From Thermoproteaceae archaeon (GTDB taxonomy: Archaea > Thermoproteota > Thermoprotei > Thermoproteales > Thermoproteaceae), in contig JAJHRB010000029.1 of assembly GCA_020833025.1 (NCBI GenBank), positions 1 to 17,902 on the forward strand: a stretch of DNA of 17,902 bases. The letters run 5' to 3'. The position numbers and the translations under genes are program-made. This document shows, piece by piece, positions 4,152-17,902 of the stretch. The notes under the pieces are model-generated. The model had not been told where the DNA came from. It did no database searches and worked only from the letters and a program-made list of their open reading frames with translations. Numbering within the stretch: the stretch's first letter is position 1; every line of letters starts with the position of its first letter.

Positions 4152-4766
4152 TCACAGGGCACGGAACGGCCAGGATATTGATTCCAAGACCCTCGGCACT
4201 TTCCGCGCGGCCCTCTCGCGCACCTCCTCGAGGTAATTGCTGCCCGTTGAATCGATGACCACAGTCAGCGGCCCGAAGCTCTCAACATCGAGAACCCACA
4301 TAGCGTCAGCAATGCCGAGGTCAAGCCAGTGGACGGAGACAACGCGCCTCACAGCCGCAGCGGCGAGCACGCCGGCGCCGCCCGTGAAGACGGCATAGGC
4401 CGCGCCGCACTCCCTCAACGCCTTAGCGGTTCTCCTGCCCATGCCGCCCTTGCCGACGACAAGCTTGACGCCGAGCTTCCTGATCACCTCTGCCTCAAAG
4501 GGCTCCATCCTGGCTGACGTGGTGGGGCCGGCGCTCACCACCTCCCAGCCGTCCCCCGCCCTCCTCACGACGGGGCCCGCGTGGTATACGACGCCGCCGT
4601 TGAGATCGACGGGCGGCCTCTCCCCGCGCCTCAAGTACTCGACGAGCCGCTTGTGCGCGAGATCCCGCGCGGTCACGACGAGCCCGCTCACGTAAACCAC
4701 GTCGCCAATGCGGAGCCTGGCGGCGTCCTCTGCAGCTATTGGAGTTCTGAGCGTGTAGACGGCCAC
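4152..4766 (-). CDS. Fe-S hydro-lyase beta subunit (class I fumarate hydratase / L-tartrate dehydratase beta)
   Basis: LRIGDVVYVSG, ARDLAHKRL, YHAGP, GPTTSARM, GKGGMG, GPLTVVIDSTG: typical of the FumA C-terminal/TtdB family. Confidence 0.92.
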   Translation of the reverse strand: MAVYTLRTPIAAEDAARLRIGDVVYVSGLVVTARDLAHKRLVEYLRRGERPPVDLNGGVVYHAGPVVRRAGDGWEVVSAGPTTSARMEPFEAEVIRKLGVKLVVGKGGMGRRTAKALRECGAAYAVFTGGAGVLAAAAVRRVVSVHWLDLGIADAMWVLDVESFGPLTVVIDSTGSNYLEEVRERAARKVPRVLESISWPFRAL

Positions 4767-4785
4767 GGGCGTGATAAGTCGGACG

Positions 4786-4827
4786 TTAAAAAGCGTACCT
4801 GACTTTGCTATACTTCACGTATTAAAA
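4786..4827. promoter_or_regulatory. back-to-back TATA boxes of a bidirectional promoter (probably leaderless transcripts)
   Basis: TTTTTAA on the minus strand (4792-4786) lies 20-26 nt upstream of GTG 4766. TATTAAAA on the plus strand (4820-4827) lies 21-28 nt upstream of GTG 4848. Confidence 0.6.
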
Positions 4828-4847
4828 CGCGGCAGCGTCTGAGTGCG

Positions 4848-5735
4848 GTGCTCGAGACTGCGCTCCTCAGGGCAGCCAAGGAGGCTATTGCACGCGCCAC
4901 AGTAGGCCTGCCTTCCGACATCGTGGCGGCACTGGAAAGGGCAGTTGAAAGCGAGAGGAGCGAAATGGCGAGGTACCACTTAAAGGCAGCCCTCGAGAAT
5001 GTGCGCCTGGCAGTACGCCGCAGGGCCGCCGCGTGTCAGGACACAGGATTTCCCAGCTTTTATGTGAAACTCGGCGACGGCTTTCCCCTGAGGAGCAGAG
5101 CGCTTGAAATACTTGCGCAGGCCGTGCGCGAAGTCTCGCACGAGCTCCCGCTCAGGCCCAATGTTGTGCACCCCATCACCGGCAGGGTCTTCGAGGACAA
5201 CGTAAGCGCCGGCGCGCCGTGGTTCGACGTCGAGCTAGCCGCCGGCGACTACATTGAGTTCTTTTACGTGCCGAGAGGCGGCGGCTCCGAGCTTCCGAGC
5301 GTGGCCTTCACGCTCCCTCCGGGCATTGCGCTGCGAGAGCTCCCGCGCGTGGTCTTGAGGGCTGTAGTGAGGGCGGGGCCTGTGCCGTGCCCTCCCGTAA
5401 TCGTGGGAATCGGGGTGGGCCCGTCGGTTGATATAGCAGCGAGACTCGCGAAACGAGCAGCGGTGCTGAGGCCCGTGGGCTCCAGGCACCCCGAGCCCGA
5501 GATAGCGCGCGTGGAGGAGGAGCTGCTAAGGGCCATCAACATGCTGGGAATTGGCGCGCAGGGAGTGGGCGGCGCGATAACGGCGCTTGACGTGCACGTA
5601 GAGTACGCGTGCAGGCACCCGGCCGCCTTTTCTGTCGGAATAGCCTTTTCCTGCTGGGCTACTAGGAGGGCCGGCGCCAGAGTCTATCCCGACGGCAGTT
5701 ACGAGCCACTAGACGCGCCGCCAAGACTTAAATAA
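4848..5735 (+). CDS. Fe-S hydro-lyase alpha subunit (class I fumarate hydratase / L-tartrate dehydratase alpha)
   Basis: Three [4Fe-4S] ligand motifs CQDTG, CPP and CW, plus LRPNVVHP, GGGSE, RPVGSRHP, LGIGAQGVGG and RHP. Confidence 0.92.
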   Translation: MLETALLRAAKEAIARATVGLPSDIVAALERAVESERSEMARYHLKAALENVRLAVRRRAAACQDTGFPSFYVKLGDGFPLRSRALEILAQAVREVSHELPLRPNVVHPITGRVFEDNVSAGAPWFDVELAAGDYIEFFYVPRGGGSELPSVAFTLPPGIALRELPRVVLRAVVRAGPVPCPPVIVGIGVGPSVDIAARLAKRAAVLRPVGSRHPEPEIARVEEELLRAINMLGIGAQGVGGAITALDVHVEYACRHPAAFSVGIAFSCWATRRAGARVYPDGSYEPLDAPPRLK

Positions 5736-5737
5736 AT
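5728..5737 (+). promoter_or_regulatory. TATA box for the tRNA-Asn 3' fragment
   Basis: TTAAATAAAT overlaps the upstream stop codon. It would start transcription at about 5755-5762, giving a 20-25 nt leader before the exon at 5782. Confidence 0.55.
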
Positions 5738-5781
5738 GTCTGCAGAGAGAGGCAGTCTCGGGACCCGTCGCGCTCGCCGAT

Positions 5782-5845
5782 GCTGTTAACCCGTAGGCCG
5801 GTCCGCGGGCGGAAGTCCCGGGTTCGAATCCCGGCGGCGGCGCCA
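5782..5845 (+). tRNA. 3' fragment (position 31 to CCA) of tRNA-Asn(GUU); putative split tRNA with a 45/46 intron
   Basis: G31, loop CT-GTT-AA (anticodon 5785-5787), stem CCCGT, AG, [intron 5797-5814], GTC, T-arm CCGGG-TTCGAAT-CCCGG, acceptor strand CGGCGGC, discriminator G, CCA. There is no GCCGCCG/D-arm 5' half nearby on either strand. Confidence 0.85.
5797..5814 (+). other. 18-nt archaeal tRNA intron at position 45/46 (BHB-like)
   Basis: Central helix CCGT (5791-5794) pairs with GCGG (5809-5812), bulges are AG^G and AA^G, and the intron hairpin is CCG-GTCCG-CGG. Removal restores the AGGTC variable loop. Confidence 0.85.
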
Positions 5846-6020
5846 CTGCCCTCTTCTCCGCGCCACCGCCGCGATTTCTCTCCGTCACGGCGCGCTGTTT
5901 CCAGCCTCTCGGGGGCCGGCGGTCTTGCTTCTTGGAGCTGGGGTCAGATGCTTGGCTGCAGCAAGTGCGACTAGTAAGCAGTCTGCGAAACTCTTTTATT
6001 TAAACAGAAAATGATGCGCT

Positions 6021-6404
6021 ATGAAAGTTCGCGAACTAATTTCCAAGCGCGTCGTCTCGTGCCGCGATGACGAGCCAATTGAGTGCGCCGTGATCAAAAT
6101 GCACGCGGAAAATGTGGGAAGTGTCCTCGTGGTGGACAGCACCGAATCTCTCGTCGGGATAATCACTGAGAGAGATGTCATTAGGCTCGTCGCGCAGGGA
6201 GTCGATCTTAAGATGCCGCTTAAAAGCGTCATGACTCGCAGGGTAATTACAGCAGAGCCCGACGAGGCAGTGTCATCTGCAGCTGTCAAGATGGTGGAGA
6301 ATAACATAAGGCACCTGCCAGTAGTAGAGGGCGGCAGGGTGGTGGGCGTGGTAAGCATAAGGGATGTCATGAGGGCACTCCTCGCCTCGGCGGCATTCCC
6401 GTAG
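6021..6404 (+). CDS. CBS domain (tandem pair) protein
   Basis: Two CBS repeats (VGSVLVVD...VGIITERDV; IRHLPVVE..RVVGVVSIRDV). TATA-like TTTATTTAAA at about 5995-6004. Confidence 0.92.
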   Translation: MKVRELISKRVVSCRDDEPIECAVIKMHAENVGSVLVVDSTESLVGIITERDVIRLVAQGVDLKMPLKSVMTRRVITAEPDEAVSSAAVKMVENNIRHLPVVEGGRVVGVVSIRDVMRALLASAAFP

Positions 6405-7098: not shown

Positions 7099-7974
7099 CG
7101 GCGCAGGGAAGCTGCCTGTGCCGCTGAAGTAGTCCCATCCGCGCCACCTCAGCGTTCCCTCACGCCACCAGACCGCGCCGCTCCCGCTCACCACCTCTGC
7201 GAACGCGATATATGGCTCTGTTACATCGCAGTCGCGCCTCACAGCGAACACAGGCAGGAGCTCCTCCCCGCCGTTAAACACGAGCTCATCCACGTCAAGA
7301 CCCCTCTCTCGCGCGAACTCCACTAGCTCGTCAGAGGTGGGGAGTCGAGTCACTATTACGTCAACCCCCCGTGCCATAGTCCACAGCACGTCGGCAAGAC
7401 CGTCTGAGGAGTCCATGCTTGCCGTGACGCAGTGAGCCGGCGGCAGCGGCCACGTGGGCTTGGGCCGGCGCAGCATCTCAACGCCGCGCCTGACGACAGC
7501 GCTCCTGCCGCTCTCGCGCCAAAATCTGTAGGCTATGCTGGTATAGCCGAACTCCGGTATTGTGATGAGTATGTCGCCGGGTCTCGGGATCCGGCCTACC
7601 CGCCTCTCGGCTCTCCCCACCATCACAATGTCTACCACGACGTCGCCACCCCGGTTTAAGTCGCCGCCAATATATTTAACCCCGAAGCACGATGCAGCTT
7701 CGAGGATGCCCTCGATGACCTCAGAGGCCTCCGAGAGGCTCGGCGCCGTGACAGATGCGAGCATGTGCGTCGGGGTCGCGTACTTGACCCTCATGTCGCT
7801 GTAAGCCGCGGCAACTCCCCTCCAGCCGAAGTCCTGCCAGCTCTGGAACGCGAGTCTTGACGCCGACGCCGAGATGCCGTCAATTTTAACGGCAATGCCG
7901 TCAATGTAGGTCACATCGTTGTCCTCGGCGCCGAGTGAAGACAGGAGGTCTCGCAGGAAGGCCTTCTCTCCCAC
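7093..7974 (-). CDS. thiL: thiamine-monophosphate kinase
   Basis: N-terminal GEKAFL, DND, G.RGVAAAYSD, IGGDL, SMDSSDGLADVL, GGEE. Convergent with rpiA, with a 6-nt overlap of the 3' ends. Confidence 0.85.
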   Translation of the reverse strand: MGEKAFLRDLLSSLGAEDNDVTYIDGIAVKIDGISASASRLAFQSWQDFGWRGVAAAYSDMRVKYATPTHMLASVTAPSLSEASEVIEGILEAASCFGVKYIGGDLNRGGDVVVDIVMVGRAERRVGRIPRPGDILITIPEFGYTSIAYRFWRESGRSAVVRRGVEMLRRPKPTWPLPPAHCVTASMDSSDGLADVLWTMARGVDVIVTRLPTSDELVEFARERGLDVDELVFNGGEELLPVFAVRRDCDVTEPYIAFAEVVSGSGAVWWREGTLRWRGWDYFSGTGSFPAPL

Positions 7975-17518: not shown

Positions 17519-17549
17519 GCCCCGGTAGCTCAGCCCTGGTAGAGCGCCT
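17519..17549 (+). tRNA. 5' piece (positions 1-29) of tRNA-Thr(GGU); putative split tRNA
   Basis: GCCCCGG acceptor strand, TA, D-arm GCTC-AGCCCTGGTA-GAGC, G26, CCT, then a trailer A-GGGAGTTCCCTCGGGCTG (17550-17568) complementary to the leader of the 3' piece. Confidence 0.88.
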
Positions 17550-17689
17550 AGGGAGTTCCCTCGGGCTGCCGGCTCTCTCCAAGACAGGCAGCAGTAGCTC
17601 CGCCCCGCGCGGAGTGAGTGGCGCGGGGATGTCGCGTGAACTCGGACCTAACAGCGGCACTCGGGGGCGGCTTGAGGCGGCAGGGCCGT

Positions 17690-17701
17690 AAAAAATATAA
17701 A
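17690..17701 (+). promoter_or_regulatory. BRE/TATA for the tRNA-Thr 3' piece
   Basis: AAAAAATATAAA, about 20-28 nt upstream of the complementary leader starting at about 17721-17723. It is the only AT-rich island in this GC-rich stretch. Confidence 0.65.
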
Positions 17702-17753
17702 GGATTGACGCGGGGCTTAAACCAGCCCGAGGGGCTCCCGCGTAGGCTTGGTA

Positions 17754-17772
17754 AGGGGGCAACCTCCCAACG
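17754..17772 (+). other. 19-nt canonical 37/38 tRNA intron (BHB)
   Basis: Central helix TTGG/CCAA, bulges TA^A and CG^A, intron hairpin GGGG-GCAA-CCTC with a GNRA tetraloop. Confidence 0.88.
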
Positions 17773-17791
17773 AGCAGGAGGTCCCGGGTTC

Positions 17792-17809
17792 GGGGGAGAG
17801 CCCGCCCAG
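17792..17809 (+). other. 18-nt T-loop tRNA intron, position 56/57 (relaxed BHB)
   Basis: Central helix GGGT (17786-17789) pairs with GCCC (17804-17807), bulges TC^G and AG^A, intron stem GGG/CCC. Removal gives the TTCAAAT T-loop. Confidence 0.78.
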
Positions 17810-17902
17810 AAATCCCGGCCGGGGCTCCAGTCCGCATTTCTGGCTCCCGCCAGGCCCGGCCGGCATTTAGCTCAAAGCCGACCAAATCGGCGCCGAGGAC
17901 GC

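Follow-up and report, generated by a model that had tools for sequence, protein, structure and literature searches.

What gene does a tRNA 3′ half belong to when its 5′ half is nowhere near? The question is raised by a 17,902-nucleotide (nt) stretch of DNA from a Thermoproteaceae archaeon (GenBank assembly GCA_020833025.1, contig JAJHRB010000029.1, forward strand; below, the window), which carries positions 31–76 of tRNA-Asn(GUU), CCA included, behind a promoter and a GC-rich leader of their own. We argue that this element is very probably the 3′ half of a genuine trans-spliced (split) tRNA-Asn(GUU) gene.

In the genome under study (G000), the window corresponds to contig C74; the 126 contigs of the assembly amount to 1.56 Mb at 62.6% GC and are rated 93.9% complete and 0% contaminated. 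The genome belongs to the genus Pyrobaculum. In a tree built from one gene, TmcA, it branches as the sister (support 94/88) of all 16 other Pyrobaculum, with Pyrobaculum sp. WP30 nested in the crown; it represents an early-branching lineage of the genus.

A tRNA-Asn 3′ half with its own promoter

The features of a half-tRNA that a first-pass annotation of the window had described, including the TATA box, all reappeared in our reading of the sequence (Table 1). The exons are interrupted at 45/46 by an 18-nt cis intron with its own bulge-helix-bulge, a type of intron that we also find in at least six other tRNA genes or halves here (halves of Lys(UUU), Arg(UCU) and Trp; genes for Cys, Arg(UCG) and Arg(GCG)). 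Neither ARAGORN nor Rfam at its gathering score detects a whole tRNA in the window, and the acceptor and D-arm motif of an Asn 5′ half occurs nowhere in it, in keeping with the earlier statement that positions 1–30 are missing. A permuted gene, which that annotation had also discounted, is rejected, as there is no 5′ half anywhere in the window near the 3′ half.

Two other assignments were considered and discarded. At a permissive threshold Rfam reports a sub-threshold mascRNA match (24.5 versus 42.5 bits) and a tmRNA fragment, both of which reflect no more than the T-arm and acceptor strand. When long introns are allowed, ARAGORN calls a tRNA-Arg(ccg) over 4513–5845 with a 1,258-nt intron; we rejected this call because its 5′ part lies inside the fumarase β reading frame and its anticodon arm is misread.

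The matching 5′ half lies on another contig

A genome-wide scan for acceptor-plus-D-arm geometry yielded one piece with a matching acceptor strand, on the minus strand of contig C20. (A simple acceptor-strand pattern is uninformative in so GC-rich a genome, and BLAST with the leader as sole query is swamped by chance GC-rich matches.) The piece is 32 nt long and corresponds exactly to tRNA positions 1–30, the D-loop carrying two extra residues. It has a perfect acceptor strand, a perfect D-arm and the GCGG of the anticodon stem, its motif occurs once in the genome, and it is preceded, at about 27 nt, by a TATA box of its own. The first-pass annotation had predicted just such a free 5′ half, ending after position 30. 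The trailer that it proposed was right in part: the distal 12 nt reproduce the reverse complement of window positions 5755–5766 without a mismatch, and the remainder differs from the proposal, pairing through G–U wobbles and one bulge.

When the exons are joined they form a perfect cloverleaf, which ARAGORN identifies as a 78-nt tRNA-Asn(gtt), identical at 75 of 76 positions to the intron-less tRNA-Asn gene of a relative (G005). The two halves lie on separate contigs and do not form one transcription unit; as the closest contig ends that matter are 5.7 kb and 13.2 kb away from them, they must be at least about 19 kb apart.

We found no second tRNA element with a GUU anticodon in the 93.9%-complete assembly, whether by BLAST of the 3′ half, by scans for the T-arm and the anticodon loop, or with the Rfam tRNA model. 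The search for an intact or cis-intron tRNA-Asn, which the first-pass annotation had put forward as a check on its own reading, was thus made across the assembly and came back empty.

Trailer and leader form a cognate pair

Drawn as two RNAs, the halves adopt a structure in which all 47 pairs are canonical. It comprises a 7-base-pair (bp) acceptor stem, a 4-bp central helix between positions 25–28 and the GCCG of the leader, the T-arm and a second bulge-helix-bulge at 45/46. Two 3-nt bulges put the cuts after G30 and before G31, which agrees with the earlier interpretation of the GCCG-AT preceding G31 as the 3′ strand of a bulge-helix-bulge. Directly beside this motif, trailer and leader pair over 3+18 bp, with one bulged base and G–U wobble pairs. 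The 30/31 motif is of the relaxed form, because its exon-side outer helix is weak. Its geometry, with a 4-bp central helix and two 3-nt bulges, is shared by the cis introns that relatives carry at 30/31.

The pairing is specific. The duplex energy of the Asn trailer with the Asn leader is −51.7 kcal/mol, against −27.5 to −34.7 kcal/mol when the Asn leader is combined with trailers from four other 5′ halves in the same genome and −24 to −32 kcal/mol when the Asn trailer is combined with four other leaders, and the full five-by-five matrix of trailer and leader energies is diagonal. Among 20,000 random genomic 28-mers paired with the Asn leader (mean −18.7 kcal/mol, standard deviation 5.4, minimum −43.6 kcal/mol), none reaches the cognate value, which corresponds to z = −6.1. 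A half-tRNA together with a partner so matched is far more than chance would provide.

The promoters are spaced according to the kind of half that they precede. In each of the four 3′ halves examined, the TATA-like box starts 50–54 nt ahead of the exon; in 5′ halves and intact tRNA genes the distance to position 1 is 26–30 nt, and a leader of 23–27 nt is therefore common to the 3′ halves. For the Asn 3′ half this spacing would imply a transcription start near 5755–5759, and it lengthens the leader of about 20 nt in the first-pass annotation to 23–27 nt, GCCGAT included.

A predicted route to mature tRNA-Asn

Taken together, these features suggest how the tRNA might be made. The TATA box on C20 would direct synthesis of a leaderless RNA consisting of positions 1–30 and the GC-rich trailer, and that in the window an RNA consisting of the leader, positions 31–45, the intron and positions 46–76. 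Trailer and leader would then anneal and the 7-bp acceptor stem and the anticodon stem would form, creating the relaxed bulge-helix-bulge at 30/31. An (αβ)2 splicing endonuclease would cut both bulges at 30/31 as well as those of the 45/46 intron, after which RtcB would join G30 to G31 and G45 to G46. The product would be a normal tRNA-Asn, probably the only one in the cell.

The genome encodes the machinery for such a route. Splicing endonucleases of the heterotetrameric type cut non-canonical and relaxed bulge-helix-bulge motifs, and orthologues of both chains of the P. aerophilum heterotetramer (PDB 2ZYZ) are present (E = 1.9e-94 and 2.4e-44), the α and β subunits being encoded on contigs C61 and C29, as is the RtcB ligase. 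The RtcB family match falls in two pieces about 1.4 kb apart within a single 961-residue open frame (C60 4614–7331), which suggests an intein or other insertion.

tRNA-Asn in related genomes

Relatives carry this gene in several forms. Nine other Pyrobaculum genomes have a tRNA-Asn that lacks an intron at 30/31. Two complete genomes, which we take to be P. islandicum (G007, chromosome 1,826,402 bp) and P. neutrophilum (G016, chromosome 1,769,823 bp), each have one tRNA-Asn gene in which a 23-nt cis intron occupies 30/31 and a 45/46 intron is also present; the 30/31 intron forms a hairpin with a stem of 4 bp and likewise ends in GCCG-A-N. A cis 30/31 intron with the GCCG-A-N geometry is likewise found in the tRNA-Asn of a Thermoproteus-like genome (g3).

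In the complete genome of Pyrobaculum sp. WP30 (CP012158.1, chromosome 1,993,257 bp; G015), tRNA-Asn is likewise divided at 30/31. A separate TATA box precedes the 3′ half, which lies 3.85 kb from the 5′ half on the same strand; a T-run follows the 5′ half/trailer, and between the halves the locus (about 862.9–866.7 kb) holds a 1,043-residue reading frame that has no Pfam match. Nine hot-spring metagenome contigs carry this type of split, with the halves 0.77–1.05 kb apart in the five that hold both. A metagenome scan for the leader–exon boundary returned WP30-type loci and no second example of the type described here, and we found no paper describing the WP30-type split. Because WP30 is nested among species with intact genes and our genome is sister to the rest of the genus in the one-gene tree, the two splits probably arose independently.

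A separate observation concerns another complete relative (G008), in which a second tRNA-Asn 3′ end lies 4.3 kb downstream of the intact gene (about 566123 and 570464). The pair looks like attachment (att) sites around an integrated element.

Origin of the split

Both sites of rearrangement can be recognized by comparison with relatives. At all nine loci examined in Pyrobaculum, tRNA-Asn is flanked by gene Y on one side and by a HAD-hydrolase gene, X, on the other. The 5′ half on C20 still adjoins X, divergently, as in one relative, but is followed downstream by gene Z, the conserved promoter of which begins about 50 nt past the exon. Z normally lies on the same strand downstream of the fumarate hydratase α gene, W, at a distance of 1.2–1.4 kb in five complete Pyrobaculum genomes and 4.2 kb in three complete outgroup genomes. 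In our genome W is followed directly by the Asn 3′ half. Similarity to the fumarase α of relatives ends at about 5705, where the frame continues for nine codons before stopping inside the TATA box of the 3′ half. This nine-codon C-terminal extension (5706–5735) is absent from relatives and, as judged from the alignment, arose with the rearrangement junction.

By this synteny, one inversion-type exchange, with breakpoints between the Asn halves and between W and Z, explains both junctions and their orientations. On this model the gene began with a cis intron at 30/31, the state that relatives retain, and then became two units, which the exchange with the fumarase–Z intergenic region dispersed. 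Because the 3′-half promoter lies on the tRNA side of the junction, a proximal split with two promoters, like those of tRNA-Thr(GGU) in the window and tRNA-Asn in WP30, probably preceded dispersal. We looked between W and Z in relatives for a tRNA or other RNA gene that might have served as a recombination partner and found none.

Weighing the alternatives

Several points weigh against a trans-spliced tRNA-Asn. We infer transcription, annealing, cutting and joining from sequence-level evidence alone. The weak outer helix of the 30/31 motif could form two pairs, and formation of the central helix is in competition with one pair of the D-stem; both weaknesses are shared by the cis 30/31 introns of relatives. 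The minimum-energy cofold reaches −99.0 kcal/mol, compared with −85.5 kcal/mol for the drawn structure, and differs from it in details: it keeps the intermolecular duplex and the acceptor stem and, when unconstrained, does not draw the bulge-helix-bulge. No clear oligo-T terminator follows either half. The gene after the 3′ half is V, not Y as a single inversion predicts, and in none of the relatives examined does V adjoin fumarase or tRNA-Asn; one or more additional events, or a gene order peculiar to this lineage, are therefore needed. Finally, an intact tRNA-Asn could sit in the roughly 6% of the genome that the 126 contigs do not include.

This last point leads to the rival that we take most seriously, although we think it improbable: that the halves are decaying remnants of a rearranged gene and that a functional, intact tRNA-Asn lies in the unassembled part. 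The fragmentation and 93.9% completeness of the assembly leave room for such a gene, and metagenome bins often miss tRNA genes. Remnants would not be expected to look like these, however. Both halves are free of defects, to the extent that their joined product nearly equals the G005 gene, and each has a promoter at the spacing typical of its family. The trailer and leader pair over 21 bp, as opposed to the 4-bp hairpin stem of a cis intron, and a trans system needs such pairing where a remnant does not. Several other tRNAs of the genome have the same architecture, each with its own cognate pairing. That the separation of the halves is instead an artefact of assembly, or reflects a very long cis intron such that the halves are contiguous or on one transcript, seems to us less probable still. 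The contigs come from a metagenome, and near-identical 5′ halves of several tRNAs could confuse an assembler, but both halves lie well inside their contigs, each has its own promoter, and the junction regions share no direct repeat, only the inverted complementarity of leader and trailer, which would not come from an artefact. An analogous split is moreover present in the complete WP30 genome.

An att-site scar, in which the 3′ part of a tRNA has been duplicated by an integrating element, is the least credible of the explanations and is largely refuted. The tRNA similarity does begin near the anticodon loop, as in many att sites, and the genome carries such duplicates for tRNA-Ser(GCU) and tRNA-Ser(CGA). 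Those duplicates, unlike the Asn element, have intact twins and lack such a TATA box and leader. An att duplicate is a copy of an intact gene's 3′ part, yet the assembly contains neither such a gene nor a second copy, and a free 5′ half has a trailer that complements the leader. The flanks likewise contain no integrase or mobile-element gene; they encode fumarase, a CBS-domain protein and ribose-5-phosphate isomerase, consistent with the housekeeping surroundings noted in the first-pass annotation. We therefore retain the trans-spliced tRNA-Asn as the preferred explanation.

Table 1 Features of the split tRNA-Asn(GUU) and of other elements mentioned in the text (window positions unless a contig is named)
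Feature	Position	Strand	Basis or remark
3′ half of tRNA-Asn(GUU), positions 31–76 including CCA	5782–5845	+	Sequence reading
TATA/B recognition element (BRE)-like promoter of the 3′-half unit	5728–5737	+	Overlaps fumarase α stop codon (5733–5735)
GC-rich leader of the 3′ half	5755–5781	+	Pairing with 5′-half trailer; TATA spacing
Leader part pairing over 18 bp with 5′-half trailer	5755–5772	+	
Leader part pairing over 3 bp with 5′-half trailer	5773–5775	+	
GCCG, central-helix strand of bulge-helix-bulge	5776–5779	+	Pairs with positions 25–28
3-nt bulge with 3′ cut site	AT 5780–5781, G31 5782	+	
Exon, positions 31–45	5782–5796	+	G31, anticodon loop, anticodon stem 3′ strand, positions 44–45
Anticodon GUU	5785–5787	+	
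Cis intron at 45/46	5797–5814	+	Own bulge-helix-bulge
Exon, positions 46–76	5815–5845	+	Variable-loop end, T-arm, acceptor 3′ strand, G73, encoded CCA
Positions 46–48	5815–5817	+	
T-arm (perfect)	5818–5834	+	
Acceptor 3′ strand; G73; CCA	5835–5841; 5842; 5843–5845	+	
5′ half, positions 1–30	C20 13302–13271	−	Trailer to about 13246
Fumarate hydratase α (W), upstream neighbour	4848–5735	+	
CBS-domain protein (V), downstream neighbour	6021–6404	+	
Rearrangement junction J1	5700–5735	+	Alignment of fumarase α ends: G000, WP30, G007 and G017 (presumably P. calidifontis, chromosome 2,009,313 bp)
Orphan Leu, Gln and Glu pieces	C89 (44350, 48541, 53522, 55050, 466), C102 (3207), C34 (22761), C19 (711, 16032)		
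Ser att-like duplicates	C12 (552 and 11372), C17 (10521 and 96), C78 (4350)		

Further fragmented tRNAs and other observations in the genome

Four trans pairs with cognate-specific pairing were recognized in the genome, for Asn, Lys(UUU), Arg(UCU) and Trp. The three others are also split at 30/31. The Lys(UUU) halves diverge from a palindromic double promoter on C81 (about 440–700); for Arg(UCU), a 5′ half on C89 (about 28993) pairs with a 3′ half on C13 (about 7320–7390); and for Trp(CCA), a 5′ half on C46 (about 7391) pairs with a 3′ half on C28 (about 19260–19330). About nine further candidates comprise three or four Leu, two Gln, Thr, Lys(CUU) and others. The Lys(CUU) halves lie 279 nt apart on C31. 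The tRNA-Thr(GGU) occurs in pieces within the window itself (17519–17829), as a proximal tandem split: a 5′ piece begins at 17519 behind a TATA box of its own, and a second TATA box about 200 nt downstream is followed by the remaining tRNA, with further introns. Orphan 3′ pieces with no adjacent 5′ acceptor strand belong to three or four tRNA-Leu, two tRNA-Gln and tRNA-Glu(UUC), and for Leu there are also two free 5′ pieces, both of which stop within the D-arm. On balance we incline, by a small margin of confidence, to the view that this lineage holds the most fragmented set of tRNA genes known, in which cis introns, tandem and divergent proximal halves, and dispersed halves represent every intermediate stage.

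The att-like duplicates of tRNA-Ser(GCU) and tRNA-Ser(CGA) repeat the 3′ parts of these tRNAs beside the intact genes. The two Ser(GCU) copies on C12 are 10.8 kb apart, suggesting that they mark an integrated element.

The genome also contains a 24-nt clustered regularly interspaced short palindromic repeat (CRISPR), with 63 copies in one array (C47 from 26217) and about 13 single copies (C10 4955–5019 and about ten other contigs). About ten of the single repeats are preceded by conserved, leader-like sequence, some 75 nt long and containing a TATA box. One such unit lies directly after gene Y, in the place that tRNA-Asn occupies in relatives. These are either real solitary units or assembly breaks.

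Comparison with known split tRNAs

Split tRNA genes are rare, and they are central to the debate over whether two half-molecules gave rise to tRNAs or whether intact tRNAs were fragmented afterwards. By 2014 a review counted 29 split tRNA genes for 12 anticodons in seven genomes, with Asn unmentioned (PMC4033280), and none of the five Pyrobaculum genomes sequenced by 2011 had a split tRNA (PMC3218864). The first-pass annotation knew of no described split tRNA-Asn. Our literature search, later papers included, likewise found no split tRNA-Asn and no split tRNA of any kind in Pyrobaculum, a result that is provisional because subscription journals lay outside the search. Split tRNAs as such are already known; provisionally, the Asn isoacceptor and the genus Pyrobaculum are new among them.

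A split tRNA-Asn adds an isoacceptor that, having a single anticodon, should be essential, and standard tRNA finders leave this essential tRNA unannotated in genomes of this kind. The relatives supply the full series from no intron through a cis 30/31 intron and a proximal split to a dispersed one. Together with both rearrangement junctions, this series makes the model of a late split through an intron directly testable. If the lineage does hold the most fragmented tRNA gene set, tRNA-Asn would be the first split tRNA for which both dispersal junctions can be read from synteny, and would lend concrete support to the view of tRNA gene evolution in which introns came first and splits late.

Two of the close counterparts are within the genus. 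The cis-intron genes of G007 and G016 have the same exons, the same 30/31 and 45/46 sites and the same GCCG-A-N ending, and they adjoin the same HAD-hydrolase gene as our 5′ half. They are, however, one gene with one transcript, and a short hairpin intron stands where the two RNAs of our genome form a 21-bp duplex. The WP30 split involves the same tRNA, the same 30/31 site, the same leader ending and a promoter before the 3′ half. It differs in that WP30-type halves have not left the ancestral locus, where they share a strand and are 0.77–3.85 kb apart, whereas those described here are on different contigs; its leader and trailer sequences are unrelated to ours, and a T-loop intron takes the place of the 45/46 intron.

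Beyond the genus, Caldivirga maquilingensis has tRNAs of split and tri-split form (Fujishima et al. 2009, as reviewed in PMC4033280). It shares with our genome the archaeal order, a heterotetrameric endonuclease, a free-living habit and leaders that match introns of related species; the isoacceptors named for it in the review do not include Asn. A further close parallel is the trans-spliced tRNA-Lys(CUU) of Nanoarchaeum equitans and of Staphylothermus marinus and S. hellenicus, which is also joined at 30/31 (Chan et al. 2011, PMC3218864). Common to both systems are separate genes with their own promoters, a GC-rich complementary trailer and leader, a 30/31 bulge-helix-bulge and processing by the intron endonuclease, which for our genome is predicted. 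The system described here differs in its isoacceptor (Asn), its lineage (Pyrobaculum, Thermoproteales) and the additional 45/46 cis intron in its 3′ half, and the Staphylothermus halves are proximal, whereas the Asn halves lie on different contigs.

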